This document shows positions 11,862 through 27,382 of a stretch of 64,000 bases of DNA, piece after piece. A program made the position numbers and the translations under genes. Position 1 is the first letter of the stretch. The number at the start of each line of letters is the position of its first letter. A model generated the notes under the pieces. It saw only the letters and a program-made list of their open reading frames with translations. It did not search any database and was not told the DNA's origin. Source of the stretch: a virus (taxonomy: Duplodnaviria > Caudoviricetes); the IMG/VR virus record IMGVR_UViG_2814123293_000008, positions 12,264-76,263 of that record; one strand, 5' to 3'.

Positions 11862-13507
11862 GCGTTTTCTCCCTTCCCTTCGCCCTCGCCATTGCCGCCT
11901 TCGCCGTCATCGGCACCGGAGCTCGGCAGGTTGGTAATCCGTGCGCCGCCCGCTTCCGCGAGCTTCGCGTTTTCTGCTTTTAGCTGCTCCACGTTGGCCT
12001 CCCAGTCGCCTCCGCCCAGCTCGCGCGTGACCTGCTCGTGGGTCTTGAAGCCGTGGTCGACCAGGACAACGGCGGCGTTGGCCTCTTTCAACGGGTCGAG
12101 CTGTCCCTGCACGGGGCCGATCCAGCGCGCGCCGCACCACGCGGCCCGCACCAGGGGGTCTTCAAAGAAGCCCGGGGCCTTGATGCGGCCGCGGGCCACC
12201 GCCTCCGAAAGCCACACTTCATAGGCCGGCTGGCAGAAGTCGGTCACAAACCAGCTCCGGCGCATCTTGAACTCTTCCCAAGCCTCCAGGAGAGCGGCGC
12301 GGGAGGCCGAGTAGCTGGAGTTAAAGGTCTTCATCAGCACCTCGTAGGGCTCTCCCAAAGCCGCGCCGGTCTGCTGGCAGAAGGTCTTGACGAAGGTATC
12401 AAAGCCCGTGGTGGGGATGCTGGGGTTTCCGAATTTGATGTCCTCATTCTCCGCCAAGTGAGAAACCGTGCCGGGGCCCATCTCATACTCGCTGTCGCTT
12501 CCGGATAGGTTGTTCTCGATGGGATTTGCCGCGGGGACACCGGCGATGTCGCCGGTGCCGACCTCGTTGACGGGGATCTCGGTCTGGCTGGTCTTGGTGA
12601 TGATCCACGCCGTAAAGAAAGACTGGACGAGGGCGGCCATAAGCGTGCTCTCCGTGTACCGGCGTAGCTGTAGCAGCTGCTCGATCACTGGAGCCAGATA
12701 GGTCACGCCACGGTATTGGTCCGGCCGCTCGCTCCCCATGATGTGGAGGATGTTCGGCAAGCCCGTCCTGGGGCCGTAGGCCTCCACCCTCGTCCACTTG
12801 GTCGGCTCTGTCGTGGTCTGCCAGGGGTAGGTGTTGTGGACGTAGTAGGCGACGACCATGCTGTCGTTGTCCACCTCCACCCCGTCAAAGATGCGGTTTC
12901 CGTTCTCCGGGTTCTTCCCGTCCGTGATGTGTGCCACAGCCGTTCCGCCCCCGTACTCGGCGGGGGTGCGCACCCGGTCGGCCTCCACAAGATGGATGCG
13001 CAGGGAGTAGGGATTTACCGGCGTGGGGTTTCTCCGCTTGAACACGGGGAAAACGTCTCCGCTCTGGAGCCACGCCACCAGCGCCAGCTGCTGCATCCCG
13101 TAAAAATTGTTCATGCCGGTAGCGTCGCAGTTGGCCTTGTTCCTGGCCCATAGGGAAAACTCCGCCTCGGTGCGCCGTTGCCACTCCTTGGCTGCTTCCG
13201 GGGAGATGCCCAGCACCTCCCGATCCACGGAGCTCTTGAGGGTCAGGCCGACGCCGACTACCTTCGTCCGATTGGTGTTGATGGCTGACGTCGCCACCGG
13301 GGAGGACATATACAGCATCCGCCCCCTCTGGCGGAGGGTGAAGTTGTTCCAGTCGATGTCCTCCCTAGGGGAGCCGCTGCGCGGGGTAAAGCCTTTGAGC
13401 GCCCGCCGGGTCATGCTGGCGCCGGCCTCGCTGTATCCCTTGGCCTGGGGGCGCGCTGTGTCGGGCATGAACAGCCCGGTTTTCTTATCGCGGTATATGT
13501 CGCCCAC
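11858..13507 (-). CDS. Portal protein (lambda family)
   Basis: 549 aa; LRQRGRMLY, HLVEADRV, DQYRGV, NSSYSASRAALLE, DPLKE motifs; start codon uncertain (GTG 13507 or a downstream codon). Confidence 0.93.
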   Translation of the reverse strand: MGDIYRDKKTGLFMPDTARPQAKGYSEAGASMTRRALKGFTPRSGSPREDIDWNNFTLRQRGRMLYMSSPVATSAINTNRTKVVGVGLTLKSSVDREVLGISPEAAKEWQRRTEAEFSLWARNKANCDATGMNNFYGMQQLALVAWLQSGDVFPVFKRRNPTPVNPYSLRIHLVEADRVRTPAEYGGGTAVAHITDGKNPENGNRIFDGVEVDNDSMVVAYYVHNTYPWQTTTEPTKWTRVEAYGPRTGLPNILHIMGSERPDQYRGVTYLAPVIEQLLQLRRYTESTLMAALVQSFFTAWIITKTSQTEIPVNEVGTGDIAGVPAANPIENNLSGSDSEYEMGPGTVSHLAENEDIKFGNPSIPTTGFDTFVKTFCQQTGAALGEPYEVLMKTFNSSYSASRAALLEAWEEFKMRRSWFVTDFCQPAYEVWLSEAVARGRIKAPGFFEDPLVRAAWCGARWIGPVQGQLDPLKEANAAVVLVDHGFKTHEQVTRELGGGDWEANVEQLKAENAKLAEAGGARITNLPSSGADDGEGGNGEGEGKGENA

Positions 13508-13900: not shown

Positions 13901-15880
13901 CTACCATTCGTCGTAATATTTTTTCAGCGCGGAACCGCGCTTGGTCTGCTTTTTGGGGGGCGGCGGAGCCGTTGCAACGCCCGTAGAGGGGGCTTTCCCC
14001 CGGGCCGCCTTTAGCCGCCTGTCTATCTCGTCCAGGTTGGCAGGCAGGGCCTTGAATGCGGCCAGGGCGTAGTTGCGGCAATCCAGGGCTTCGTTGCGCT
14101 CGTGGCCGGGTATCTTCTCCCACACCCAGGGCTGCTTCTTGGCCGGGTCATATACCAGGTGCTCGGAGAGCAGGCCGGTAAAGTAGCCGGGGCCGTAGTC
14201 GTCCCGCCTCGGGAAGTGGCAGTACTTCGAGCCCGGCTTCTGCACCTTGAGGTTGTCCATGATGATCTGCTTACCGGAGTCGACGCCGAGCTGGTACTGC
14301 CAGCAGGTGCCGATGGCGACCTGATTGACCACGATCTTCATCTTCTTCGGCGGAGAGGTGTAGGGCTTATCCGCCCCGGGCATACCCTTGATGCAGAACA
14401 CCTTGCGGGAGATGCGCGCCCGGCATTGGAGGCGGACGTCCTGGGTGAAGTGGCCGCCCTCGTCCACGAAGGTCATAGAGCTTCGGAGTCCCAGGCCGTC
14501 CTCGAAGCGGAACACTCGGTTGAACACCATCTCGTCCAGCTTGGCCCAGGTATCCGGGTCATCCGGCCTGCCCATGACGATGCCCTTTTCAATGCCCCAG
14601 GTTTCCCCGAAGTGGCCGTGCCCGACGACCTCATACTCCATGCGGTCGTCCTGGGTGTCCACGCCGGCGGTGAGCACTAGCACCCCCTCCGGCAGCTCCA
14701 CGGGAGCGCCGTCCGGCCGGGTGCCGTAGTCCTCCCGGCGGGCCATGAGGCTGTCCTCGTCCTCCAGGTCGCCGCGGTCTTCCCACAGCAGGCCGAAGCA
14801 GGTGTTGTAGACCACCTGGAGCTTCCGGGTGTTGCCGATCGCTTTGAGATACTTGAGCACGATGGAGCTCCAGGAAGCCCACTGGCTGACAAAGGCATTT
14901 AGCCAGAAAGAGCGGACGCCCTGGGCGTATGCATCGGGGTTGTCCGCCTCCCAGCGCGCGGGCTGGTGCTTCATGGTCGTCTCGTTGGAGATACACCCGC
15001 AGCCAGGACAGACGTACCAGACGCGCAGCACCTTGAAGGTCTTGCGGCCAGCCACCACGCTTTCCTCGTGCTCATAGCGGATGTCCTCGAAGTTGATCTC
15101 GTGGTACTCTCCGCAGTGGGGGCATTTGCTTTTCCACCGCTCCATCGTGCCCTCGGCGTAGGACGCCTCGATTGCGCTGGCGTTCTTAACGGTGGGGGTG
15201 CTGACCTCCAGAGCCTTGGCGTTGTAGAACGTGGTCTGTCGGGCCTGGGCCAGTTCCCAGGGGTCACCCTCGTTGCCGGCGGAGGTCGCCCAGCGGTCGC
15301 GCTCGTCCCCCATGATGTAGCGGATGGGCTTGGATGCCAGAGCGTGGGCCTCGGTGGAACCGCACATCGTCAGGATGCCGCCGGGGTATGTCTTTTGCAG
15401 GATGGTGTTTCCGCTGTCGCGGCTTTTGGGGTCCGCCACCTTCTTTTTGAGGGTGGGGCAGTCCCGGATCATCGGAGCGATACGGAGCTTGGAGTACTCC
15501 TTGGCGTCAATGGTCGTGGGGTGGACGAACAGGATGGAGCCGGGATCCTCGTCGATGATATAGCCGATGGTGTTGTTGAGGAATTCCGACTTTCCCACCT
15601 GGGACGCCGCCACCATGACGATGCGGCGCACCCGGGGGTCGGTAAATGCGTCCATCGGCTCCCGGAGGTAAGGGGTGCGGTCGGTGCGCCAGGGGCCAGG
15701 CTCGGCGCTGGCCTCGGTGGACAGGCGGCGGTTTTTCTCCGCCCATTCCGTTACGGTCAGGTCATCCGGCGGCTTCATGCCGGCCAAGACCTTCGCGATG
15801 ACGGCGTTCAGCCGCTTTACCCGCTCGCGGGTCTCTTTCTCCCCAATGAGCCGGCGCGTTTCCTTATCCGTCATCGGCAT
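13901..15880 (-). CDS. terL: Terminase large subunit (lambda gpA family)
   Basis: PYLREPMD, ASQVGKSE Walker A, DERD Walker B, GVDTQDDR, RNEALDC motifs. Confidence 0.96.
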   Translation of the reverse strand: MPMTDKETRRLIGEKETRERVKRLNAVIAKVLAGMKPPDDLTVTEWAEKNRRLSTEASAEPGPWRTDRTPYLREPMDAFTDPRVRRIVMVAASQVGKSEFLNNTIGYIIDEDPGSILFVHPTTIDAKEYSKLRIAPMIRDCPTLKKKVADPKSRDSGNTILQKTYPGGILTMCGSTEAHALASKPIRYIMGDERDRWATSAGNEGDPWELAQARQTTFYNAKALEVSTPTVKNASAIEASYAEGTMERWKSKCPHCGEYHEINFEDIRYEHEESVVAGRKTFKVLRVWYVCPGCGCISNETTMKHQPARWEADNPDAYAQGVRSFWLNAFVSQWASWSSIVLKYLKAIGNTRKLQVVYNTCFGLLWEDRGDLEDEDSLMARREDYGTRPDGAPVELPEGVLVLTAGVDTQDDRMEYEVVGHGHFGETWGIEKGIVMGRPDDPDTWAKLDEMVFNRVFRFEDGLGLRSSMTFVDEGGHFTQDVRLQCRARISRKVFCIKGMPGADKPYTSPPKKMKIVVNQVAIGTCWQYQLGVDSGKQIIMDNLKVQKPGSKYCHFPRRDDYGPGYFTGLLSEHLVYDPAKKQPWVWEKIPGHERNEALDCRNYALAAFKALPANLDEIDRRLKAARGKAPSTGVATAPPPPKKQTKRGSALKKYYDEW

Positions 15881-16487
15881 CACGCCCGCTGTCAGCTTCC
15901 CAGGCCCTCCGCTCCCGGACGCGCTCCTCGTATTTCTTTGGGTCATAGCGGTAGTTGGAGAGCTCCCGCATGGCCTTGTTGACCTCGCGGCGGATGATCT
16001 CGGCGGCCTCCGCCGGGGACTGGGCTGCGGCCACGTCCACGGCCAGGCGGCCGGGCAGGGCCATCATCGCCCCGCGAATGGCGTAAATCAGGTCGGTGGT
16101 CATCGCGGCCACGTCCTCGCTCCGGTGCATTTTCCCCTGGAGCTCGTCGGCCTCGGCCTTGGCGATCTGGGCGCGGGCCACCTTCATCGTGACCTCGGCG
16201 GCGCTCTTGGCCTCCTCCCGCTTGATTTCCTGCTCAGACTTTTCAGGCCCCGCGCGGGCCTTGAGCATGGCGCAGTAGGCGCGCATCGTCTCGCCGAGCT
16301 CGAACAGGTTCCCGTGCGGGGTGCTGCGCTTGTGCAGCGTTCCCTGGGCCACCAACTGGCCGACCCACTGGTTACTGTTCCCGGTAGCCGAGCAGATGTC
16401 GGCGGTCTTGACGTAGACGGGAGTGCCAGCACGCAGCACATAGACGGCGCCGTCCTCCACGACAATATCCTGTTTTCTTGGTGCCAT
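15864..16487 (-). CDS. terS: Terminase small subunit (Nu1-like)
   Basis: N-terminal wHTH-like region and coiled coil; overlaps the terL start; SD GAAAGGAG before ATG 16487. Confidence 0.85.
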   Translation of the reverse strand: MAPRKQDIVVEDGAVYVLRAGTPVYVKTADICSATGNSNQWVGQLVAQGTLHKRSTPHGNLFELGETMRAYCAMLKARAGPEKSEQEIKREEAKSAAEVTMKVARAQIAKAEADELQGKMHRSEDVAAMTTDLIYAIRGAMMALPGRLAVDVAAAQSPAEAAEIIRREVNKAMRELSNYRYDPKKYEERVRERRAWEADSGRDADDG

Positions 16488-16659
16488 GGGCTGCGCTCCT
16501 TTCCTGGCCTGTGGCCCTCCGCCCGGCGTCCGGGGCATTTCTGCCCCGGGCCAGGCTATAAAAATAGGAGGCGGGCGTCCCACGCCCGGCGGAAGGTCAC
16601 GAGATGTCGATATTTTTTACTGAGATTTCAATTAAAGTTCCCCTATTTCGCGCGCACTA

Positions 16660-16725
16660 ACTAATCGTTTTTTGGGGTCGGCGAGCCCGCGGCGTGTGGG
16701 GCGGGGGTCGTCACAGTACCTTTTG
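16660..16725. other. Putative cos/packaging site
   Basis: GC-rich GGTCGGCGAGCCCGCGGC (16676-16693) matches lambda cosN GGGCGGCGACCTCGCGGG at 14/18 positions; lies upstream of terS. Confidence 0.45.
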
Positions 16726-16853
16726 CCGTCGTCGCCTGTTGCAACGCATTTCCCCGCCCTCAGCGCGACGATGCCGAGAGGGGGAGGGAGCAACACAGCC
16801 AGACGCAGATACGCCGCTCTCGTGCGATGTATGCGTCTGGCTGTGGTATTGTG

Positions 16854-17378
16854 TTATAACTTCGTCAGCAATTCCGCATGGCTATATCCCTTAACGCCCT
16901 TGGTCATCATGCCGAGGAAGTCATCGCGCGAGAAATCAGAGAGCCGGAATACTTCTTCGGGTTTCATTCCGAGCTGTTTGCCGATCTCCTGAACGGACTT
17001 GCCCTCGTCCAGCAGCCGCTTTACGATGGCTTTCATCGGCTCAAGCAGATGTGTACCACGAGCGCGGTTGTGTGTGACGGTGCCGTAAATATCCTCGGTC
17101 GCGTCATCATGCCGCACGATCACCACCGGCACCTTGCCTTTGAGCATGGTGTGCAGCGGCTCCTCTCCGGCCACGGTCCAGCGGTGAAAGCCGTCGATGA
17201 TGGTGTAGTCGGGACGCACGACGATGGGAAGCGTCCAGCCATTGGTCATGATCGATTGCACCAGCAGTTTCAGATTCTCACGGTTGACCTTGTTGGGGTT
17301 GTAGTCATTGGGCTTGAGCTGCTCCCGGTCTACCCATTGCAGGGAGGATAACGGGGCGAACAGATCCGCGTCAGCCAT
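16854..17378 (-). CDS. ParB/Srx-like protein (IbrB/YbdM-like)
   Basis: LKPNDYNPN, GWTLPIVV, IIDGFHRW, TVTHNRARG motifs. Confidence 0.88.
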   Translation of the reverse strand: MADADLFAPLSSLQWVDREQLKPNDYNPNKVNRENLKLLVQSIMTNGWTLPIVVRPDYTIIDGFHRWTVAGEEPLHTMLKGKVPVVIVRHDDATEDIYGTVTHNRARGTHLLEPMKAIVKRLLDEGKSVQEIGKQLGMKPEEVFRLSDFSRDDFLGMMTKGVKGYSHAELLTKL

Positions 17379-18525
17379 TTGCCTCACCTCCCTTCCGGAA
17401 GCGCTTGGCGTAATCGGCATAGGCGCAGGATATGTCCTGATAGATGGCGCGCAGGGTGCGGAGCTTGGGATCACCAGCAGTCAGACCGCCGTACATTTTC
17501 TTGTAGTCGCGCGGCCGCGCCATTCCGTCCATCTGAATGAACATCTTGCGGTACTGCTTGGCGATCTTGCGCTTATGCTCCGTGTTGAAGAAGTCTCCCG
17601 GACGGACGAACAGCATCTCCTTCAGGAGCGCACGGTAGTCCTTGGTGTCCTCGCCCTCCAGCTCCCGGCGCTTCCTTGTGGTGCGGTGGAACATTTCGCT
17701 GTCCCAGTACAGCATGGCAAGGTAGGCATTCGGCTCGCGCCGAAGGACGCGCTCCATGAGAGATGGGTCATATTCGCCCAGGTGTACCAGCACAGGTACG
17801 GTATCAACAGAGAAGAACTGCGACACGCGCAGCTGATTCCGATTGACGCCGACCTGATACATCTGCAGGTAGACCTCGGGGACTTCGATGCGCTGGTCTC
17901 GCAGGTACAGCCAGACGTCCGCCGTCTTCCAGTCGTAGATGGGATAGATGGTGTTCGTGCCGGTGATGCCCTTTGCGCCCATATTTAGTGCCGCCATATA
18001 TTGGAGCCGCTGAATGGACTCTGCCGCGCGGACGCCGGTGATCATGATGCCGTCCATCGTCACGCGGGGCAGGAAGGATTGATAGTTGTCGATCCTTGGC
18101 CGGAGCTGCGGGTGATTGCGGATGGCAAAGGGCGGCGGCTGCCGCACCCAGACATCGCGCTTGCGCCGATCCCAGCAGACGAAGGTTTCATCGCTGGACA
18201 GCTCATTGAGACAGCTGAAATGCTTGACCTCGATGCACCACCATTGAAACTTGGCACCGGCAAGCAGGAACTTCTTCCGCCACGCCTTGGTCGTTGCTTC
18301 AATGGAATCGAAGATTGCCTCCTCGTCCACGAAAAGGACGGTCAACTGCGAGGGATTGATCTCTCCAGCCTGGATCAGCTTATAGGTCAGGTCGGCAAGA
18401 ACGATGCTGTCCTTGCCGCCGGAAAACGAGAGGTATACGGGGACGCCGTTGGAAAATACGTTTTTGATCCGCTGGCGCGCCGCAGTCACAACGTCGATGT
18501 CTGAGCTGATGCGCTTTACAGCCAT
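17371..18525 (-). CDS. PAPS-reductase-fold PP-loop protein (IbrA/YbdN-like)
   Basis: SFSGGKDS, GVRAAESIQR, YPIYDWKTADVW motifs. Confidence 0.88.
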   Translation of the reverse strand: MAVKRISSDIDVVTAARQRIKNVFSNGVPVYLSFSGGKDSIVLADLTYKLIQAGEINPSQLTVLFVDEEAIFDSIEATTKAWRKKFLLAGAKFQWWCIEVKHFSCLNELSSDETFVCWDRRKRDVWVRQPPPFAIRNHPQLRPRIDNYQSFLPRVTMDGIMITGVRAAESIQRLQYMAALNMGAKGITGTNTIYPIYDWKTADVWLYLRDQRIEVPEVYLQMYQVGVNRNQLRVSQFFSVDTVPVLVHLGEYDPSLMERVLRREPNAYLAMLYWDSEMFHRTTRKRRELEGEDTKDYRALLKEMLFVRPGDFFNTEHKRKIAKQYRKMFIQMDGMARPRDYKKMYGGLTAGDPKLRTLRAIYQDISCAYADYAKRFRKGGEANG

Positions 18526-19121
18526 ATCCGCTCACCACATTTCGGGCAGAGGATAAACCTCTTAGCGGGCTCGGTGGAAGACGCCGTGCCGCTCTGTGCG
18601 GGTGCGACTTCCTCAGCCTGCGCCGCAGCAGCTTCTTCCCGGGCGGCGTATTTCTCGCGCGTCTCGGTGATGGCCGCAGCCTGCTCCGGCTCAATGGTGC
18701 CGTACTCAAGCAGGGCGTCGCTGGCTTCGTCAGCCTCCATCACCATCGCACGGAGAAGATCCTCTTCGTAGCCGGGAATGTCCAGGTCGTCTTTCAGGTC
18801 GAGGATAAAAGCGTCCAGCGCGGCCAAATCGTCAACACCCAGGTCAAAGACGCGGTTATCGGCCAGCATGAGCTTTTTCTTCTCTGCCTCAGTCAGCCCG
18901 GACACAACATAGCAGTCCGCTTCTGTGCGGCCGAGGGACAGCAGCGTTTCATACAAGCCGTTGCCGGCGAGAATAACGCCGTCCTCGTCGACCACGATGG
19001 GGCGGATCTGACCGAACATTTCGACAGAGCGTCGGAACTCCTTCAGCTGCTTGTCGGTGTGCATTCGGACATTCCGATCCGGTCGCCGCAGCTCGGTCAG
19101 AGGCTTCTTTATGACCTTCAT
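18516..19121 (-). CDS. ParB-like N-terminal domain protein with C-terminal CPKCG Zn-ribbon
   Basis: RNVRMH, FGQIRPIVVDE, ILAGNG, LADNR motifs. Confidence 0.85.
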   Translation of the reverse strand: MKVIKKPLTELRRPDRNVRMHTDKQLKEFRRSVEMFGQIRPIVVDEDGVILAGNGLYETLLSLGRTEADCYVVSGLTEAEKKKLMLADNRVFDLGVDDLAALDAFILDLKDDLDIPGYEEDLLRAMVMEADEASDALLEYGTIEPEQAAAITETREKYAAREEAAAAQAEEVAPAQSGTASSTEPAKRFILCPKCGERIWL

Positions 19122-19900
19122 GCCTGCACCCCCTTCAAGAAGGCGCGAGCGCTGTCGATCTTTTCAGCCGCCGCAAGGACGATGCTGTGGTCGATATCGT
19201 AGACCTCGTGCCAGCCGTTCTCGATGCTGCCCGTCCATTGGCGGGCGGGCCACGGGTGAGTGCCGCACAGATATCCGTTCTTCCAGCCGTAGATCGGCGG
19301 AAGCGGGAGCTGATGGTAGTGAATATAGGCAAGGATGTGCTCATGCTTCCACGCAGCGAGCGGGCTGAATCGCGTAACACCTTTGCCATCGGTATAGATA
19401 TTGCTGTTGCGACCGACATAATTGCCGTCCGCACGGCGGCGGCCGAGAATGATGACGTCCAGCTCGTGCGCCTTGAAGTATTCACGCTGCGCTCGGTGCT
19501 GCACGATAGAAAACCATCGTCCGGCCGCGGCGGAGCCCTTGGGGAAAAGCATCTCTTGATGCTTCGCCAGCCAGTCGATATCCTGATGCGTGTTGATGAC
19601 TTCACAGCCTGCCGGCTTATGCTCCTCGATCCACGCGGCAAAAGCGGGGTATTCCAGGTCGCACACGCCGATCATACTATCGGTGACGCCGGCCGCTTCA
19701 CAGAGTTTGCCAAGGACAATACTGTCCTTACCAGCGCTCCATGCGTAGGCAGCACACTTCCCAGCCGTCACGGCCTTGATGTCCGCCACGGTCGCGGCAG
19801 TAAGTTCGTCCAGCTCTGCGCGGGAAACGGCTTCTTCGATAGTTGCAACGGCATCCAGCCACGCGCCGTTGTCGATCCTCTGCTTCCTTCCGAGACTCAT
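19118..19900 (-). CDS. Second PAPS-reductase-fold PP-loop protein
   Basis: AWSAGKDS, LGRRRADG, SPLAAWKHEHILAYI motifs; ATG 19900 overlaps the symporter stop. Confidence 0.8.
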   Translation of the reverse strand: MSLGRKQRIDNGAWLDAVATIEEAVSRAELDELTAATVADIKAVTAGKCAAYAWSAGKDSIVLGKLCEAAGVTDSMIGVCDLEYPAFAAWIEEHKPAGCEVINTHQDIDWLAKHQEMLFPKGSAAAGRWFSIVQHRAQREYFKAHELDVIILGRRRADGNYVGRNSNIYTDGKGVTRFSPLAAWKHEHILAYIHYHQLPLPPIYGWKNGYLCGTHPWPARQWTGSIENGWHEVYDIDHSIVLAAAEKIDSARAFLKGVQA

Positions 19901-21279
19901 GCTCTCACCGCCTTTCTCGAGGCGATAACAGCGACAAGGCCGCTGGACAGGACGGTCGTCAGACTGCCTGCCGCTTTCACAGCCGGAATGCCGGCGAGAT
20001 TGCCGTAGGCGAAGATTGGAAGCCCGACACACAGCGCAGTCAGCACACCGGCAAAAACGCCCTTGCCCGTCAGCTTCTTACCGAGCAGCGTCATGACCGT
20101 CGGCAGCAGCGTCGAAGCGCGGAGCGTTCCGTAGAACAGAAACAGGTATGTCACCGTCAGGCCGGGAATGTTGGCGATGGCGATAGCCACGATCAGCAGG
20201 CAAAGCATGGTGCGGCGCGAAGTCTGCACCGTGTCCTTCCCAATGCCGAGCCAGTCTGTCGTGAGCGACGCTGCCGCGCAAAGGTTGCTATCTACCGTGG
20301 AGAGCAGGCCGGAGATAATCATAAACAGGAACGGGACCAGCACCCATGTCGGAAGCAGCGAGGAAACGAATTCAAAGTTGACCATGCCGGTGTCGCTGGC
20401 CACAAAGTCGGAGCCTGCGGCAAGGAAGCCCACCGTTCCCATACAGATCGGAACGAGCGCAAACAAAAGCGCACCGGCAAAAAACGATCTGCCGATGCGG
20501 TCGCGCCTGATTGCGAAAGCTCGCTGCCAGAAGCACTGATCCCCGAACGGGCCAGAGATCAGACCGACAGCCATCGGCAGACCGTAGCCCAGCAGGACCT
20601 CAATGCCCGTGGAGGAGATGAGCGAAGTATATTCTCCGGAGACAGCACCGAGCCCTGCCCGTACCGTGTCAAAGCCGCCGGTCATGCGAAGGCTCAGAAC
20701 GACCAGCAGAGCGCCACCCATGAGAATAATGCCCAGCTGGACGACATCGGTGATGATGGAGGCTTTCAGCCCGGAGAAGCGGGAGTAGGAATATGCGATA
20801 GCTGCCAGGGCGAGCGTCATGCTCCAGAATGGCAGCCCCGTAATGAGAGCCAGCGTCTTTCCCCCGGCGAGCAGCTGCACCGCCGTTGAAAGAACGGCCA
20901 GCGCGCCGAGCTGGAAGGAGTAGACGCCCTTGACCTTGCCGGAGTGATAGCGCTCCGCCATGTAGCCGGTCAAGGTGATGCCCTCCGGGTACTGCGCCCG
21001 GATCCTTTTTGCAAAGGGGATAAACAGGATCAGGCACAGCACATTCGGTACCGTAAACCAGAACATCCCCGGGATGCCGCGCGTATAGGCCATCTCCGAG
21101 GAAGTGAACAGTGAGGGAGCCCAAATCCAAGTGGCGGCGATGCTCATGGCGGCAATCGCCGAGCCGATGCGCCGGTCCGCCACATGGAAGCCCTCTGCGT
21201 CGGTCGTCTTTCGGGTGAACATCAGCGTGACACCGATCATCAGCACCGCATAGACGGCCAGAATGACAATTCCGAACAT
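19897..21279 (-). CDS. Sodium:solute symporter (DUR3-like)
   Basis: 460 aa with many TM segments; SIAATWIWAPSL, GLKASIITD, DQCFWQRAFA, LSTVDSNL motifs. Confidence 0.88.
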   Translation of the reverse strand: MFGIVILAVYAVLMIGVTLMFTRKTTDAEGFHVADRRIGSAIAAMSIAATWIWAPSLFTSSEMAYTRGIPGMFWFTVPNVLCLILFIPFAKRIRAQYPEGITLTGYMAERYHSGKVKGVYSFQLGALAVLSTAVQLLAGGKTLALITGLPFWSMTLALAAIAYSYSRFSGLKASIITDVVQLGIILMGGALLVVLSLRMTGGFDTVRAGLGAVSGEYTSLISSTGIEVLLGYGLPMAVGLISGPFGDQCFWQRAFAIRRDRIGRSFFAGALLFALVPICMGTVGFLAAGSDFVASDTGMVNFEFVSSLLPTWVLVPFLFMIISGLLSTVDSNLCAAASLTTDWLGIGKDTVQTSRRTMLCLLIVAIAIANIPGLTVTYLFLFYGTLRASTLLPTVMTLLGKKLTGKGVFAGVLTALCVGLPIFAYGNLAGIPAVKAAGSLTTVLSSGLVAVIASRKAVRA

Positions 21280-21284
21280 TTTGG

Positions 21285-21440
21285 AAATCTCCTTTTATGA
21301 TGTCACCGCTGCCCTCTGCTGGCGAACATCGGACCCGGCGCATGACCGGCGCGCAAGGAGTAACGCGCAGGCCTCAACCTCCTTCCCAAACGAATGACGG
21401 CCACCCCGCGAGGGATGGCCGCCTGGCTTATGTAGGATTT
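21285..21440 (-). promoter_or_regulatory. Structured 5' leader of the symporter operon (candidate cis-regulatory RNA)
   Basis: Four stem-loops; one loop carries an anti-SD sequence CUCCUU. Confidence 0.45.
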
Positions 21441-21509
21441 TACGAGTCTAATCCTAATACATGGTGCGGGGAATATCAAGAAACGAGTTGCAACAGCGAA
21501 GAACAGCTT

Positions 21510-21902
21510 TTAACTACCGAGGTAGCGGTAACACACCATCTTTACCGAATCCTCCGAATTGCGGCCTCCTATGACCGCTGCGACCTCTTTCCATGCGAGC
21601 CCTCTCAGGAAGCGCAGCCGGAAGATCAGGCGCGTCTGGTCATCGTCGATGCCTTGAATGAACGGCATGATCTGTCCCTCGCTGGCCTTGACCTCTTCCT
21701 CCAGAAAGCCGACACGCGCATCCATATCCACAATCTCAGCTGCGAGGTCGCCGACCTTATCCTTTATGCCGGGAGTATGCGGCATACCTGTGAGGGCAGC
21801 CGCGCCGGGGCAAGCCGCGTCACGCAAGGACTGTAGCATCTCCCTTGCCCTTGCCAGTTTCTCTATCAGCTCAAAATGCTGATTCAATTCCGAAAGCGTC
21901 GT
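21510..21902 (-). CDS. Late transcriptional activator (ArpU/RinA/DUF1492-like)
   Basis: DDQTRLIFRLRFLRGLAWKEVA C-terminal HTH; last early gene; start probably non-canonical (ACG 21902 or ATT 21905) or TTG 21887. Confidence 0.75.
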   Translation of the reverse strand, partial: TTLSELNQHFELIEKLARAREMLQSLRDAACPGAAALTGMPHTPGIKDKVGDLAAEIVDMDARVGFLEEEVKASEGQIMPFIQGIDDDQTRLIFRLRFLRGLAWKEVAAVIGGRNSEDSVKMVCYRYLGS

Positions 21903-21924
21903 AATAGCTCACCCCAATCTGTTC

Positions 21925-22113
21925 TTACTTCCTCTTGCCGCCCTGTCGGCTGACAGTCTCTCCAATCTGCATTTGCCGGTATGATGGCTGCACTACCTCT
22001 ACCGACACCACACGGGTATCTCCGTACCGCTCCAAATCCTGAGCAATCTGCTCCTTTATGCCAATGGCCTGCCCCGCCGGGGCGTTCACATGAACGGTGA
22101 TGACGAGCATCAT
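21925..22113 (-). CDS. Hypothetical protein
   Basis: Coupled ORF in the early operon. Confidence 0.6.
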   Translation of the reverse strand: MMLVITVHVNAPAGQAIGIKEQIAQDLERYGDTRVVSVEVVQPSYRQMQIGETVSRQGGKRK

Positions 22114-22811
22114 CGCACCGTCTGATAGGCGCGAGCTTTCTTGTTATAGGCCAGATCGACCGGCGCGCCGCAGGAAAGGCAGCTGTAGGTGAAGACGTCC
22201 CCCTCGAAATTCGTCCGGTATTTGAAGTGCTTTCCGCACTTGCAGCGGATGTGCGCCGACGTGAGATCGTGCAGCGGCGTCTCTCCGTTGCAGGTTGCGC
22301 ACCGATAGGACGAGATAGGCTGTTTTGCGTAAAAGCCGCGCAGCTCGCCGCATTGTGCGCACCGAATAAGCAGAAATCCCTTGTATGTCTTCGGCGTGGT
22401 CTCCTCGGCTTCCGCTCTATCAGGGATAGCCCAGGCCTCTTTCGGCCCGAACATAGTCTCCGCGCGGCTGGGCTTTGCACGAAGCAAAGTCGGCTCTGCC
22501 TTGTGTATCTCCGGCAGGGAGGCCTTCGTTGCAGCCCCGCGCCACACAGGGCGGCAGTCTATGCCATTCCCGAGGCGGCAATGCCATCTGTTCGCGCCGC
22601 TGAATTCCTCTTTCTCTCCATGCTCGCAGTATTCGCAGTTGCCGTTCAGCCAAAGCAGAGCGGCAATATCGGTCGCGGCGGCGTTGATCGCCTCCTCCGC
22701 TCCCGCAAACTCCTGCACCAAGTCAAAAAGACGGCTGTAATCGTCATACTGAATACGCCCGTTCTCATTCAGCTCATTGATAAAATCGAGCAGGTTTTCA
22801 AATCGTTCCAT
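22110..22811 (-). CDS. Hypothetical Cys-rich (Zn-binding) protein
   Basis: Multiple CxxC motifs; RBS; coupled to neighbouring ORFs. Confidence 0.7.
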   Translation of the reverse strand: MERFENLLDFINELNENGRIQYDDYSRLFDLVQEFAGAEEAINAAATDIAALLWLNGNCEYCEHGEKEEFSGANRWHCRLGNGIDCRPVWRGAATKASLPEIHKAEPTLLRAKPSRAETMFGPKEAWAIPDRAEAEETTPKTYKGFLLIRCAQCGELRGFYAKQPISSYRCATCNGETPLHDLTSAHIRCKCGKHFKYRTNFEGDVFTYSCLSCGAPVDLAYNKKARAYQTVR

Positions 22812-22823
22812 AGAAGCTCCTTT

Positions 22824-23228
22824 TCATTCCATCGCCACGCAACCACAGACTGTACATTGACCGTGAAAGTGTCCGTTGCTGCGCGCCCTTGCTCCGACCA
22901 TCGTGCTCTTTCCTCCGCAGGAGGGGCAGTCCATGCGAACTTCCTCCGGCGGCTTGCTCCATTCCTCCGTAAGCGCGTCGGGCAGAAACCTTTGACCGCA
23001 GAAGACACACCGCTCCAAGCTGTACGGCATATTCCCGCAGGAGGGGCATTCGGGATATCTGCCGCTCCAATAATCCTCAGCCCAGCGAATATGTACCGGC
23101 TCAGCCTTGCCGTTTTCCTTATCATCGGCGGCGGGCTGGTGTTCGCAGGTATCGCAGTAAAACTCCTTCTTGCAGACCAAGCCCTTATCCCAATGGCAGT
23201 ACATAGTGAGATCTCCGGTATCAATCAT
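22824..23228 (-). CDS. Hypothetical Zn-ribbon protein
   Basis: CPSCG twice, plus further CxxC motifs. Confidence 0.65.
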   Translation of the reverse strand: MIDTGDLTMYCHWDKGLVCKKEFYCDTCEHQPAADDKENGKAEPVHIRWAEDYWSGRYPECPSCGNMPYSLERCVFCGQRFLPDALTEEWSKPPEEVRMDCPSCGGKSTMVGARARSNGHFHGQCTVCGCVAME

Positions 23229-23640
23229 TTTTGTCGTCCTCCTTCGGCGGCGCAGGCAGCGGCATCCAATAGACAACTGCAACATCGCTTCTATCTCCGA
23301 TACCGACATGGACGCTCCATTCCGCCCTTTCGGGAGCGCACCAGCCCATATAGACGCCCCATCTTTCGTTCCAATACGCGACAACGAGGACATTGCTACG
23401 ATCTTCCGGTAACCTCTCTTTTACAGATACCCATTTTGGCATCCGTTTTGTCGCAGCATTCAGCTTCAATTCGAGCCGGCCGGAATAGCGCTTGCTATCC
23501 TCGAACATCATCCCCATCTTTACGATTTCGTCCGGCATCAACTCTGTTGCTTCGTAAGAAGCCAGCCGCGCCAGCGCGACCTCATATCCGCGGCGGCAGT
23601 AAAGCCGCCCATCCTCGTCATACCATGTCAGCTTATCCAT
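23221..23640 (-). CDS. DUF551-like protein
   Basis: WVSVKERLPE...VVYWMPLPAPP motif. Confidence 0.8.
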   Translation of the reverse strand: MDKLTWYDEDGRLYCRRGYEVALARLASYEATELMPDEIVKMGMMFEDSKRYSGRLELKLNAATKRMPKWVSVKERLPEDRSNVLVVAYWNERWGVYMGWCAPERAEWSVHVGIGDRSDVAVVYWMPLPAPPKEDDKND

Positions 23641-23902
23641 TGCGTTCCTCCCTCGATTTGAAGTTGCCTGCCGCCCGGCAGCTCCCCCAGTGGGGAGCGA
23701 AGCCGGTGCCGGTGGCCTTGTGCGGATCTTCCGTATACTCGCAGGAAATGACCTCGCCGTTGGGCGTGACGATCTTTTTACTGCCGGAACGGGGCTTTTC
23801 GATGTAATAGCGCGGGGTGGCGTCACACGGCATGGACTTCCCGCCGGGTGTTCTGATCCAGACGATAGCCGCGCCGCAGCCTTTGCAGGTAGATGCTCTC
23901 AT
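23633..23902 (-). CDS. Hypothetical phage protein
   Basis: CKGCGAAIVWI...GKSMPCD...HWGSC pattern. Confidence 0.7.
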   Translation of the reverse strand: MRASTCKGCGAAIVWIRTPGGKSMPCDATPRYYIEKPRSGSKKIVTPNGEVISCEYTEDPHKATGTGFAPHWGSCRAAGNFKSREERNG

Positions 23903-25272
23903 TCGTCGGTCACCTCCCCGAAAAGCTCATGTGTTCCGTCCTGGAGAGCCTTTTCATCGTCGGACATCTCGTAGCCCAGCTTGACGAGCAACGCATAGAT
24001 GCGGTCCAGCTTCTCGTTTTCCTCGTGCTTCATGGTGTAGCTGTTCCAGTAGCTGCGGAAATAGCCCTCGGATTTGCCATCACCCAGGCGCGCATAGATC
24101 ATTCGCAGGAGCGCCTTTTCGGGCGTCTTGCCGATTGCGTCGGTCACGGCCTGGAGCGTAAATGCGGCATCGTCCTCACCGTCCTCGTCATCTTCGGCAA
24201 GGGTCTCGGCGCCAGTAGCCTGCGCGATCTCCTCTTCGGTGAGCCAACCGGTATCGTCCCAGTATTCGGCGTAGGCCCACAGCGCCACGATGTCCGCAAG
24301 GCGCTTTTTGATGGCGGTTGTGGAAACGGTAGCCACGAAGTCGGCGCGAAGCTCGTAGGCGCGGGCGGTTGCTTCGGACAGCGCCTTTTCTGCGGCGTCC
24401 TTTCGCTCCTGCTTCAGCTGCTCCTCGCGCCCTTTCGCTTCTTCCTCCGGGGTAAGGGCGGTGGGCTCATCCTTGACCATCAGCACAATATAACCCCATG
24501 TTTCGACGAAGAAGAAATACTCAATGGTATCGGCATCCTCCGGGCGATCCACTTTGACTTCTCCGTTGGTGTAGAAGCTATTGACTCTCTTATAGCCGGT
24601 CTTGTCGGTAATCTGCGTCGCAAAGGTACTCAGCTGCTCTACCCATAGGGCTTTGCGCGCCTCTGCTGCTTCATCATTGATGGCTTGTTTCAGCTTGTAC
24701 TTGAAGTTCTCGGTGCCGATGTAATCAAGCATTTCATTCTTACGCTCCGGACTTTTCAGCTTGTCCAGCTCCATGTACTCGAAAAGGCTGACGCCGCGCT
24801 CCTCGGACTTCTTGAATTTGTCCTTATCCAGCTCCAGGAGCTTCACACGGCGCCGGACGGTGGTGGCGGAAAAACCGGACTTTTCCGCGATGTCCTCGAC
24901 GGTATCGCCCATGTCAAGCATCATCTGGAAGCCCTGCGCCTGCTCATAGACCGTCAGATCGGACCGCTGCATATTCTCCGTGAGCATCGTACTCAGCTGC
25001 TCCCGCTCCGACATCTCGACCACGACGCAGGGAAGCTCCTCCAAACCAGCCAGCTTTGCGGCCGCAAGACGGCGGTGGCCGATGATGACGCGGTAGCTTT
25101 CTCCGTCCCACTTCTTTGTGATTTCCCCGATCAGCGGAACAACGGTGAGGTTTTGGAGTACGCCGTTGACCTTGATGCTCTCAGCCAGCTCGGTCACATC
25201 GCCCAGGTCCTTACGGGGGTTATCGGGATGCCCCCACAGTTTACTGACCGGAATGTACTTGATTTCTGCCAT
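23899..25272 (-). CDS. ParB/RepB/Spo0J-family protein
   Basis: HPDNPRKDLGD, GVLQNL, IIGHRR, ENMQRSDL motifs. Confidence 0.9.
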   Translation of the reverse strand: MAEIKYIPVSKLWGHPDNPRKDLGDVTELAESIKVNGVLQNLTVVPLIGEITKKWDGESYRVIIGHRRLAAAKLAGLEELPCVVVEMSEREQLSTMLTENMQRSDLTVYEQAQGFQMMLDMGDTVEDIAEKSGFSATTVRRRVKLLELDKDKFKKSEERGVSLFEYMELDKLKSPERKNEMLDYIGTENFKYKLKQAINDEAAEARKALWVEQLSTFATQITDKTGYKRVNSFYTNGEVKVDRPEDADTIEYFFFVETWGYIVLMVKDEPTALTPEEEAKGREEQLKQERKDAAEKALSEATARAYELRADFVATVSTTAIKKRLADIVALWAYAEYWDDTGWLTEEEIAQATGAETLAEDDEDGEDDAAFTLQAVTDAIGKTPEKALLRMIYARLGDGKSEGYFRSYWNSYTMKHEENEKLDRIYALLVKLGYEMSDDEKALQDGTHELFGEVTDE

Positions 25273-25322
25273 AAAACGCTCCTTTCTTATGCCGAGCTTT
25301 GCCCCTCGGCTGGGACAGCTTA

Positions 25323-26507
25323 TTATTTTCGGCTCATGCCGTTCACGCGGCACCAGTGCCGCTGGGCCTGCTTCTTCCTCGCGGTGCGGCAGGCCAAGCA
25401 GAAGCGATTTTCCTTGCGCTCATAGAAGGTAGCCCCGCAGCGGGCGCAGTATTGCGGGGGTATGCGGCGGAACTCTGTGCAGGAATCGCAGTCCTTGCAC
25501 CCGGCGGCGCATCCGTCGAAGTCATCCCAGTTCATGCACATAAACCGCTGCCAGTAGGGGTCATACCCGAGGTCGTTCATCCTCTTGCGGAGCAGTGCCG
25601 CCAGCGTGGAGAGGTCGCGCCGGACCTGCTGTCTGGTGCGCGAGATATAGAAGCTGTGCTTGACGTCCATCTCCGGGGCTCCGGATCCCCAGGGTCCGTC
25701 GCCGAGCATTTCACGCACCTTGTCCATGTTTTCGGTCAGGTAGTCGTTGTAGACCTTGGAGCGGACACATTTCTCCGACCGGCCTACGGCCTTCCCGATG
25801 GCGGCGTAGCTGTCGCCATTGCGAATACCGTCAACCAGTGCCTCAAAGTCCTCCGGTGACCATGTCCCACGCTTCCCGGTCAACTCCATAGCCACAGGCC
25901 GGTCTTTGATACCAAGGTCGCGGCAACGGCGGGAAATCGCTCCATGGGAGCGGTGCATCATGTCGGAAATTTCGGCCCACGAATACTTGTGCAGGCTGAC
26001 CAGCATTTTTAGGCGGGAGTCCTCTGTCGGTGTCCATGCGTCCTTTCTCTGAAGCGCATAGGCCTCATAATCTTTTCGGCGCTGCCCCGGCAGCCAGTCT
26101 GGTTCCTCCCCCAGTGCCAGGGGCTCCATTTTGGAGAAATCCAGGAAAGAGCGGTTTTTCTCGGCCCACGCCCAGAATTCACCCAGGTAGACCACACGGA
26201 TCGTCGATGCTCCCCGCCGCTTGTAGTGCAGGGGGAAGCCCCGGTTTTCCACCCAGCTTTTCATGAAATACTTATCCGATGATGCCCCGAAGCCAAGTGC
26301 GCGTGACAGTTGGTGCAGGGTGATGTATTCTCCACTCTCCAGGTAGGGCGGAAGCCCCAGCCGGTTTACCCTTACCATGATAGCGTTTTTTGTGCGGTTC
26401 AAGTGGCGGCAGATTCCATCGACCGTCACGGTACCCCAGCTCTCCCGGAGGTAGTTTTCTTCCTCCGCCGTCCATGTCCTTTTCCCAAGCGGCGGCGATA
26501 CGCGCAT
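25323..26507 (-). CDS. Protein with three Myb/SANT-like HTH repeats and a Cys-rich C-terminus
   Basis: WTAEEENYL, WTPTEDSRL, WSPEDFEAL repeats; C-terminal CxxC clusters. Confidence 0.7.
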   Translation of the reverse strand: MRVSPPLGKRTWTAEEENYLRESWGTVTVDGICRHLNRTKNAIMVRVNRLGLPPYLESGEYITLHQLSRALGFGASSDKYFMKSWVENRGFPLHYKRRGASTIRVVYLGEFWAWAEKNRSFLDFSKMEPLALGEEPDWLPGQRRKDYEAYALQRKDAWTPTEDSRLKMLVSLHKYSWAEISDMMHRSHGAISRRCRDLGIKDRPVAMELTGKRGTWSPEDFEALVDGIRNGDSYAAIGKAVGRSEKCVRSKVYNDYLTENMDKVREMLGDGPWGSGAPEMDVKHSFYISRTRQQVRRDLSTLAALLRKRMNDLGYDPYWQRFMCMNWDDFDGCAAGCKDCDSCTEFRRIPPQYCARCGATFYERKENRFCLACRTARKKQAQRHWCRVNGMSRK

Positions 26508-26521
26508 TTTCTCCCCTCCCA

Positions 26522-27382
26522 TCAAAACAGTGTCAGCTGGCCGCCCTTGCCCTCGGACAATGTAGGCCCATTTGTGCCTGGCGGCTCCGGGGCCAGCGTT
26601 TCCGCCTGGCCTTTCGGAGCCGCCGTGAACAATACGCGATCCATCTGCACCCACAGCCGGCGCCAGTGCCAAACGTCCCGGAAGTACATGGGCGTGTACC
26701 AGACGTTTGGTCCGTCGCGAGGAATGAGCCCATGAGGATCAATCCCTGTTATGGGGTGGGAGATACTGTCGTCTATGACCACATACCCAGGGCAGCCCAT
26801 GAGGCTCAGCTGGATATAGCACATCATCCCTGCCAGGAAGTCGATGTCTTGGGCCACGAACAGCACCGACGTCTGGAAGTTGATGTCGTGGCCAGGGCGG
26901 CGGCACTCGTTTGCAAAGGCAATCAGCAGGGCCCCTGCTCCGCAGGCCGGGTCGTTAACGGCCACCCATCCCCTTTGTTCGATACGCGCCTTGAGATCGT
27001 CGCCGTAGGTCATGCCGGACATCGCCCGGCACACGGAGTACGGGGTGAAGAACTGCCCCTTCCACTTGTTGCTGAGGTCGAGGGCCATAAACAGCTCCCC
27101 GAGGAGGTCTTGATCGGGCTCTCGCTCCATTTCCATAGCCACCTCCGCCAGCATCTGTGCGAATACCTCCAGCTCCTTCCGGGAGTACCGGGAAGCGTGC
27201 TCCATGTACTCGCGCTCACGGGCCTCCCGGTGAGGGCCGCTCAGGACGTTCGCGATGCTGATGGCGGACATGATGATGAAGTCCTGCCACACTTCCCACC
27301 TGGAGTAGTGGCCGCACAAGCCGTCCAGCAACTTGACGATATTCTTTTGGCACTCACCACGGAGACGGATGGCCTTTCCCAT
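26522..27382 (-). CDS. N6-adenine methyltransferase-like protein (HsdM-like, apparently truncated)
   Basis: GQFFTPYSV and DPACGAGALL motifs; no NPP(F/Y) motif visible. Confidence 0.75.
   Translation of the reverse strand: MGKAIRLRGECQKNIVKLLDGLCGHYSRWEVWQDFIIMSAISIANVLSGPHREAREREYMEHASRYSRKELEVFAQMLAEVAMEMEREPDQDLLGELFMALDLSNKWKGQFFTPYSVCRAMSGMTYGDDLKARIEQRGWVAVNDPACGAGALLIAFANECRRPGHDINFQTSVLFVAQDIDFLAGMMCYIQLSLMGCPGYVVIDDSISHPITGIDPHGLIPRDGPNVWYTPMYFRDVWHWRRLWVQMDRVLFTAAPKGQAETLAPEPPGTNGPTLSEGKGGQLTLF

Follow-up and report, generated by a model that had tools for sequence, protein, structure and literature searches.

An importer-linked PP-loop/ParB gene cassette beside the terminase genes of gut Clostridia phages: a candidate DNA-modification module

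Conservation and spread of the cassette

The window analysed here, a stretch of 64,000 nucleotides (positions 12,264 to 76,263) of the 76-kb IMG/VR provirus record IMGVR_UViG_2814123293_000008, encodes on its minus strand, at 21279-16854, five genes in the same direction: an SSS-family symporter, a PP-loop enzyme (PP1), a ParB-like protein (ParB1), a second PP-loop enzyme (PP2) and a second ParB-like protein (ParB2). This cassette is real, widespread (hundreds of phages) and, as far as the searchable literature shows, uncharacterised; quite probably, its importer works with the IbrA/IbrB-type enzymes in a single functional pathway that draws on an imported small molecule. We tentatively regard the cassette of this temperate siphovirus of gut Oscillospirales as a late-expressed, importer-fed module for ATP-dependent ligation of an amine to phage DNA; we infer both the target, DNA, and the identity of the substrate. 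Coordinates, family matches and gene junctions confirmed the five overlapping genes reported in a preliminary description made from the sequence alone. In gene order, the reading frames meet in ATGA, ATGA, a 10-nt overlap and, between PP2 and ParB2, an 8-nt overlap; the genes are translationally coupled and head the late operon.

The symporter has 149 relatives in IMG/VR and 190 in a one-genome-per-species GTDB collection. The best 80 of each (55-99% identity) were examined, and counting was based on the 136 loci in which the sequence continues for at least 3.3 kb past the symporter, 67 from IMG/VR and 69 from species genomes. ParB1, PP2 and ParB2 follow the symporter, in identical order and on the same strand, in 134 of these 136 loci (66/67 and 68/69, respectively), and PP1 is also present in 122. 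The arrangement is far beyond chance, and the co-occurrence of symporter and enzymes, whose failure had been named in advance as a reason to abandon the interpretation, holds. A blind sample of 301 Oscillospirales genomes contained a close PP2 in only five, too few for a frequency estimate, with the symporter in front of it in 5/5. Approximately 10% of the surveyed loci lack PP1 yet keep ParB1, so the two enzyme/ParB pairs of the preliminary description give way to a core of importer, ParB1, PP2 and ParB2, to which PP1 is an optional add-on. The more widely conserved core consists of ParB1, the IbrA-like PP2 and the IbrB-like ParB2, in front of which gut Clostridia phages add a membrane importer. 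The two exceptional loci are internal deletions or decayed copies, the deletion joining PP1 to ParB2 in one of them (L025) and extending from ParB1 into terL in the other (L141).

Synteny of the cassette holds across differing terminase and portal backbones, and in many loci the terminases differ beyond detection. In seven loci (L066, L114, L116, L121, L130, L131 and L154) PP1, ParB1, PP2 and ParB2 are 73-93% identical to those of the window (86-90% for PP2), whereas the symporter shares only 57-59% identity, and therefore symporter alleles have been swapped inside one slot. In another group (L083-L089), comprising Dysosmobacter, Agathobaculum, Yanshouia, Faecousia, Hominicoprocola and two uncultured genomes, one of which was binned as Bacteroidales (possibly a binning error), the cassette proteins are 93-100% identical; the adjacent terL genes are only 76-81% identical, indicating that the cassette travels between phage backbones as a unit. 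The hosts given in the records are Oscillospiraceae, Lachnospiraceae, Ruminococcus, Anaerotruncus and Anaerovorax, and most carriers come from human-gut samples. Cultured carriers include Dysosmobacter segnis BX15, Agathobaculum ammoniilyticum, Yanshouia hominis, Anaerotruncus colihominis DSM 17241 and Acetatifactor muris DSM 23669.

In Faecalibacterium phage FP_Taranis and 80 relatives the importer slot is filled by another membrane protein, of 333 amino acids (aa), followed by ParB1-PP2-ParB2; among such Taranis-type loci the core was found in 70/72 and PP1 in only 14/72. The profile of the 333-aa protein aligned colinearly with that of the symporter over 196 columns in hhalign (probability 2.5%, E 0.018), and Atlas gave an SSF lead at 0.92 for the Taranis-type membrane protein, which may, by these matches, be a very divergent, shortened symporter relative. 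With this weak colinear match and the SSF lead, its assignment to a second, unrelated transporter family was not upheld, and it was not counted as an independent recruitment. Finally, mycobacteriophage Pipefish carries a ParB gene, two small genes, a PAPS-reductase-like gene (PAPS, 3'-phosphoadenosine 5'-phosphosulfate), a further ParB gene and terL, with no transporter and no terS annotated.

The symporter and its substrate

The first cassette gene (21279-19897, minus strand) encodes a 460-aa symporter of the SSS family (LeuT fold), with matches to PF00474 (SSF, 3e-22) and phrog_20720 (2e-169). The PF00474 match extends over residues 31-413 and reaches 79.4 bits against a curated cut-off of 22.8, which places the protein within the family. 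Its closest solved relatives are DUR3 (PDB 9j7c and 9vim; profile E 1e-21), in agreement with the resemblance noted at the outset, and the high-affinity choline transporter (1.5e-17), both of which carry small nitrogen compounds.

The urea site of AtDUR3 is formed by W93, W95, T98, Y117, Q124, N305, Y315, W338 and Y461, and its proton site by D312 and E402 (PMC11840088). These positions were mapped onto the symporter via a phmmer alignment of only ~20-25% identity. The Trp-x-Trp of transmembrane helix (TM) 1 (W51, W53), the Asp of TM6 (D247), the Pro of TM10 (P393) and the aromatic positions of the pocket are retained, whereas seven residues are replaced (Y117F, Q124C, N305L, Y315F, W338F, E402N and Y461F). 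Among the latter are all five side chains that hydrogen-bond urea in DUR3, Y117, Q124, N305, Y315 and Y461, which became mostly hydrophobic (F, C, L, F and F, respectively); the substrate is therefore probably not urea. The mapped pocket residues are invariant throughout the phage symporter clade. As a lead, this aromatic and more hydrophobic cage with one acid suggests the import of a cationic amine rather than urea.

PP-loop enzymes

PP1 (19900-19118, minus strand; 260 aa) is a stand-alone PP-loop ATP pyrophosphatase of the PAPS-reductase fold, with an SAGKDS motif and matches to PAPS_reduct (8e-10) and phrog_424. PP2 (18525-17371, minus strand; 384 aa) is an IbrA-like PP-loop enzyme with an SGGKDS motif and a helical C-terminal domain, matching PAPS_reduct (PF01507, 5e-13) and phrog_2302 (1e-85). 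The PP-loop ATP-pyrophosphatase motif is kept in every aligned sequence of both enzymes: SxGKDS and GRRxxDGN are invariant in PP1, together with no Cys residue, and SFSxGKDS is invariant in PP2, where C105 is the sole invariant Cys. At E ≤ 1e-30 the PP1 family falls into 288 clusters (50% identity), nearly all of them stand-alone proteins of ~260 aa. A search for fused forms yielded only seven long proteins; most of these are read-throughs from the symporter into PP1, apparently artefacts of gene calling or of a frameshift where the two genes overlap in ATGA, and no ParB-PP1 fusion was found among the long members of the family.

The AlphaFold2 (AF2) model of PP1 (pLDDT 97) matched APS (adenosine 5'-phosphosulfate)/PAPS reductase, CysD and FAD synthase with Z ~14, followed by NcsA (Z 13.4) and then by GMP synthase, TilS and NAD synthetase (Z 10-13). 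For the PP2 model (pLDDT 74), the top Foldseek matches, all weak, were NcsA, TilS and TtuA. By sequence, the PP1 and PP2 profiles gave only marginal matches to PDB entries (E ~1e-3), and the fold by itself assigns no reaction to either enzyme.

Comparison with individual families gave a similar picture. Both enzymes have the fold of PAPS/APS reductase (CysH), with equivalog models far below their cut-offs. The catalytic Cys of CysH sits in a C-terminal ECGLH-type motif, and no C-terminal Cys motif of this type was found in the PP1 or PP2 alignments. Neither protein belongs to the TilS family, PF01171 (ATP_bind_3) matching PP2 only at E 0.13 and the structural match to TilS being confined to the PP-loop core (Z 11-12 for PP1 and a TM-score ≤ 0.40 for PP2). 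With TilS, GMP and NAD synthetases, asparagine synthetase B (AsnB) and Gat-QueC the two enzymes share the PP-loop motif and the fold (Z 10-13), whereas sequence comparison places them in none of these families and the substrate-binding domains differ. They also share the PAPS-reductase-like fold with DndC, SspD and BrxP, to which PP2 shows local matches (BrxP, 4.7e-13; DndC, 3e-8; TIGR03183). However, these matches span ~60 core residues only (residues 156-219 in PADLOC), and the DndC model TIGR03183 scored 23.5 bits versus a cut-off of 290, which leaves PP2 outside the family. DndC, SspD and BrxP, which act on DNA, have Fe-S/Cys ligands that PP1 and PP2 lack, and have desulfurase, DndD/E or SspB/C partners; no cysteine desulfurase, DndD/E or SspB/C was found in the 136 surveyed cassettes.

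IbrA/IbrB homology and the ParB-like proteins

The likeness of the last gene pair to IbrA/IbrB, already recognised in the preliminary description, was corroborated: PP2 and ParB2 match phrog_2302 and phrog_2159, respectively, and are full-length homologues of these phage families. PP2 aligned with IbrA of Streptococcus phage CHPC1230 with 26% identity over 93% of its length (tblastn), and it has the N-terminal PAPS_reduct domain of IbrA, the phrog_2302 match spanning residues 1-363. DUF3440 (PF11922) gave no match in PP2 even at E ≤ 1, versus 1.8e-52 in CHPC1230 IbrA; given the 93%-length alignment, the C-terminal domain of PP2 may be a divergent DUF3440 homologue. ParB2 (17378-16854, minus strand; 174 aa) is an IbrB-like ParB_N protein with a helix-turn-helix (HTH)-like C-terminal region (ParB_N, 6.5e-8 and 33 bits against a cut-off of 26.3; phrog_2159, 5e-70), encoded directly after the IbrA-like PP2. 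No other cassette protein is as conserved as ParB2, which retains 65-100% identity over all loci and has invariant DGFHRW and HNRARG motifs.

Like the PP2/ParB2 pair, phage IbrA/IbrB genes are adjacent, overlapping and frequently located beside a terminase. The cassette differs from IbrA/IbrB of E. coli (K-12 paralogues YbdN/YbdM) and of phages in having an importer of its own, one more PP-loop enzyme and a third ParB-like protein, as well as in the lack of a detectable DUF3440 in PP2. This likeness gives no mechanism; in the literature on IbrA/IbrB, YbdN/YbdM, PAPS reductase with ParB and Faecalibacterium phages, we found no biochemical study and no mention of a transporter link.

ParB1 (19121-18516, minus strand; 201 aa; phrog_620, 1e-44) consists of a ParB/Srx-like N-domain, an acidic linker and a CPxCGExIWL tail. 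It gave no Pfam match above threshold, ParB_N included. Its matches to phrog_498, the N-terminal part of a DNA methyltransferase family (5e-27), and to the PADLOC MTase_II N-domain (2.4e-15) identify the N-domain as the subtype fused to phage DNA methyltransferases. In the alignment, ParB1 reads GNGL where ParB-type proteins usually have a Gly-x-x-Arg box. The cassette proteins are not partition ParBs of the CTPase-clamp type: ParB2 scored 29 against a parB_part cut-off of 58, and HTH_ParB was detected in neither ParB1 nor ParB2, being present in a separate 484-aa ParB of the same phage. At the ParB1 C-terminus (18516-18560), the invariant CPxCGExIWL contains a single CxxC, half of a zinc ribbon, following a low-complexity acidic linker; this CxxC might form a full metal site together with a partner or with another copy of the protein.

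Variant cassettes with accessory enzymes

Several distant loci carry additional enzymes next to PP1. In L256 the gene order is symporter, an unknown gene, a KamA-family radical-SAM (S-adenosylmethionine) aminomutase, PP1, ParB1, PP2, ParB2, terL and portal; the symporter has 49% identity to that of the window, with unchanged pocket residues. The aminomutase matches lysine 2,3-aminomutase 2A5H with an E value of 7e-116, retaining Asp293 and having Tyr at the position of Asp330; these two Asp residues hold the side-chain amine of lysine in that enzyme. The aminomutase adjoins PP1 in the same way in L257, which comes from a second sample; no relatives of the L256 aminomutase were found in IMG/VR, and a metagenome scan with the L256-type PP1 found none. 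In L117 and L142, a class-II glutamine amidotransferase of 197-199 aa, starting with MCGIFG and matching GATase_6 (3e-11 and 2.5e-13), is encoded between PP1 and ParB1; no such gene is present in the window. In L261, the gene that separates an IbrA-like gene from IbrB-PP1 encodes an AMP-binding enzyme with a fused methyltransferase.

These neighbours back the proposal that a PP-loop enzyme ligates an amine. Like AsnB-type enzymes, some PP1 relatives are paired with a class-II glutamine amidotransferase, and others with a lysine-aminomutase-like enzyme; a glutaminase beside a PP-loop enzyme is the split form of amidotransferases of the asparagine-synthetase or Gat-QueC type. Together, the glutaminase and aminomutase neighbours point to a PP1 that adenylates an oxo or carboxyl group, which ammonia or an amine would then attack.

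In L259 (1949-2554) and L260 (1269-1874) a 201-aa protein with a typical signal peptide is encoded between the symporter and PP1; this protein may act as a channel of the outer membrane in phages whose hosts are Gram-negative. The ~200-aa genes located between the symporter and PP1 in L256, L259 and L261 are mutually non-homologous.

Proposed function and alternatives

In the mechanism that we tentatively favour, the symporter would import, late in infection, a small nitrogenous and probably cationic or hydrophobic compound, and the two ParB-like proteins would bring PP2 to double-stranded DNA. There PP2 would use ATP to adenylate an acceptor position, from which the imported amine would displace AMP in the style of TilS, GMP synthetase and NAD synthetase. 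Where present, PP1 would carry out a second ATP-dependent amidation or an extension of the adduct, a step that a glutamine amidotransferase or a beta-amino-acid-forming aminomutase would serve in rare relatives. The adjacent terminase would package the modified DNA, the likely benefit being protection from host restriction or other DNA-targeting defence; the preliminary description had put forward anti-restriction or better condensation as candidate benefits. The timing of expression, from a late promoter and shortly ahead of packaging, is in keeping with modification after replication. A more specific version is possible, and we hold it with lower confidence: a DNA hypermodification in which the ParB-loaded PP-loop enzyme adenylates a base and the phage-imported amine displaces AMP, with some phages amidating further or using a beta-amino acid.

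The suggestion that ParB-like proteins partner phage DNA-modifying enzymes has gained an experimental precedent. According to a 2026 study, one subclass of the thymine dioxygenases of phages acts on double-stranded DNA only with the help of a cognate ParB-like activator, the nucleotide-binding residues of this ParB are dispensable, and ParBs and terminases are frequent neighbours of thymine-dioxygenase pathways (PMC13229309). The degenerate GNGL box of ParB1 would fit such a dispensable nucleotide site. In the 7-deazaguanine Dpd system, DpdB, a ParB-like ATPase, serves DpdA. Both the 5mYOX/ParB pairs (PMC13229309) and DpdA/DpdB resemble the cassette in having a ParB-like protein as the required partner of a post-replicative modifier of double-stranded DNA, in clusters often located beside terminases. 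The catalytic partner there is a dioxygenase or a transglycosylase, whereas here it is a PP-loop ATP pyrophosphatase. To our knowledge, neither the 5mYOX/ParB nor the Dpd systems include an importer.

Several points weigh against ligation of an imported amine to DNA. For homologues of PP1, PP2 and ParB2 no reaction is on record, the arginine box that usually binds nucleotides is missing from ParB1, and the substrate is deduced from a DUR3 alignment of ~20-25% identity. The amidotransferase and the aminomutase occur in only a few distant loci and not in the window. Phages of Mycobacterium, Streptococcus and Flavobacterium carry IbrA/IbrB-like pairs without a transporter, and import is therefore not intrinsic to the chemistry. 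Moreover, the only phenotype known to us for IbrA/IbrB is the activation of prophage gene expression in E. coli, reportedly described by Sandt et al. in 2002. As a whole, the preliminary interpretation is partly supported.

A less likely but serious rival is that the enzymes act instead on tRNA or another RNA, on a phage or host protein, or on a free nucleotide or metabolite, the ParB/Srx proteins being NTP-using enzymes or kinases rather than DNA loaders; the production of an anti-defence small molecule, or the modification of a packaging or virion protein, would be examples. The nearest structural relatives do act on tRNA (NcsA, TtuA, TilS) or on small molecules (PAPS/APS reductase, CysD, FAD synthase, GMP and NAD synthetases), the beta-lysylation of proteins is fed by aminomutases of the KamA/EpmB type, with EpmB among the aminomutase matches, and ParB/Srx folds include small-molecule and protein kinases such as sulfiredoxin and an archaeal serine kinase. 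However, ParB1 is of the kind that occurs fused to DNA methyltransferases, ParB2 bears an HTH-like tail, the cassette lies constantly beside the terminase across phyla, and a ParB-dependent DNA-modifying enzyme is already on record (PMC13229309).

A regulator of the IbrAB type, in which PP2/ParB2 together with ParB1 would co-activate late or prophage expression and the symporter would be a sensor or a rider benefiting the lysogen, is quite unlikely. The ATP-pyrophosphatase motifs, for which a pure regulator has no need, are strictly conserved in both enzymes, the link to the transporter is near-obligate across the 55-99% identity range of the survey, and amidotransferase, aminomutase and adenylating enzymes have been recruited to the cassette. 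Homologues are annotated as 'co-activator of prophage gene expression IbrA/IbrB', the ParB2 C-terminus is HTH-like, and the cassette directly follows the late promoter and leader; this same position downstream of the late promoter means that the cassette cannot be what switches that promoter on.

Very unlikely, too, is a packaging accessory, with ParB-like nucleases or DNA clamps helping the terminase to recognise or cut concatemers and the PP-loop enzymes and importer in support. The position immediately 5' of terS/terL in Clostridia phages would suit such a role, as would the Pipefish ParB...PAPS-reductase-ParB set directly 5' of terL, where terS is not annotated; yet the window encodes both terS and a complete GpA-type terL that includes a nuclease domain, certain IbrA/IbrB pairs lie at a distance from the terminase (that of phage CHPC1230, for instance, follows the lysis genes), and the importer and the amidotransferase would be left without a role. 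Finally, DNA phosphorothioation or another sulfur transfer of the DndC/SspD/BrxP type, the chemistry first considered by analogy with DndC and SspD, is extremely improbable because PP1 and PP2, with zero and one invariant Cys, respectively, have no 3-Cys Fe-S site, Cys dyad or CysH-type C-terminal Cys, against which stand only the local core matches of PP2 and the membership of DndB, the partner in Dnd systems, in the ParB superfamily (PMC10853773).

Irrespective of the target, IbrA/IbrB-like 'PAPS reductase + ParB' genes are among the commonest unexplained gene pairs beside phage terminases; the phage collection examined contains them in phages that infect Mycobacterium, Streptococcus, Flavobacterium, Bacillus, Arthrobacter and Rhizobium. 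Linkage to an importer makes the question more specific by pointing to a small molecule from outside the cell as the substrate; the accessory amidotransferase and aminomutase argue for ATP-driven amine or amide ligation, and the absent conserved cysteines against sulfur transfer. Since cultured strains carry the cassette, the question is directly testable. If DNA is the target, the cassette would represent a new modification chemistry, of consequence for restriction evasion, gut-virome sequencing artefacts and enzymatic DNA labelling. If, in particular, a base is adenylated and receives the imported amine, chemistry of the lysidine/agmatidine type would have its first counterpart on DNA, a phage DNA modification would for the first time be seen to depend on an importer that the virus itself encodes, and IbrA/IbrB would gain a biochemical function.

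Genomic context of the cassette

Of the position first proposed, between the late activator and cos/terS/terL, what stands is the location between a late-activator-like open reading frame (ORF) and terS/terL. This ORF (21887-21510, minus strand; 125 aa) lies 5' of the cassette, matches phrog_36 (transcriptional regulator, 6.7e-6) and is 41% identical to the RinA-like activator slot of phage FP_Taranis; it is also found directly 5' of the symporter in many related loci.

The ORF and the symporter gene are separated by a conserved, structured leader of ~230 nt (21280-21509, minus strand), defined from an alignment of 11-12 diverged loci. In order, it contains a TAAAAT promoter-like box, a 12-bp GC hairpin with a U tract (terminator-like), further stems and an AAGGAG ribosome-binding site; the stems after the U tract, an AAGGAG/CTCCTT stem and a CCGG stem, precede the true ribosome-binding site (21280-21435). 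Compensatory changes were seen in 14 of the 33 predicted pairs, several of them in the 12-bp hairpin. An Rfam scan of 15500-24000 at E ≤ 1 detected no riboswitch or other family in the leader, which looks more like a late-operon attenuator or an antitermination target than a known riboswitch.

Just 3' of the ParB2 stop codon, within the 270-nt gap before terS, there is a perfect 14-bp inverted repeat with a 24-nt loop (16794-16845, minus strand), which is followed by no T run and may serve as a terminator-like element, belong to the packaging site or form a structure internal to the operon. Beyond it, the minus strand encodes terS (16583-15864; phrog_57), a GpA-type terL (15946-13901; phrog_15; GpA_ATPase 2e-79, GpA_nuclease 6e-69) and a lambda-family portal (13507-11858; phrog_21; Phage_portal_2 2e-95).

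Upstream of the late region, the minus strand also encodes the full-length ParB of 484 aa (23899-25353; ParB_N + HTH_ParB), a Myb/HTH protein (25323-26672) and an N6-methyltransferase-like protein (26522-27382). With the 484-aa ParB, ParB1 and ParB2, the phage harbours three proteins of the ParB superfamily in total.

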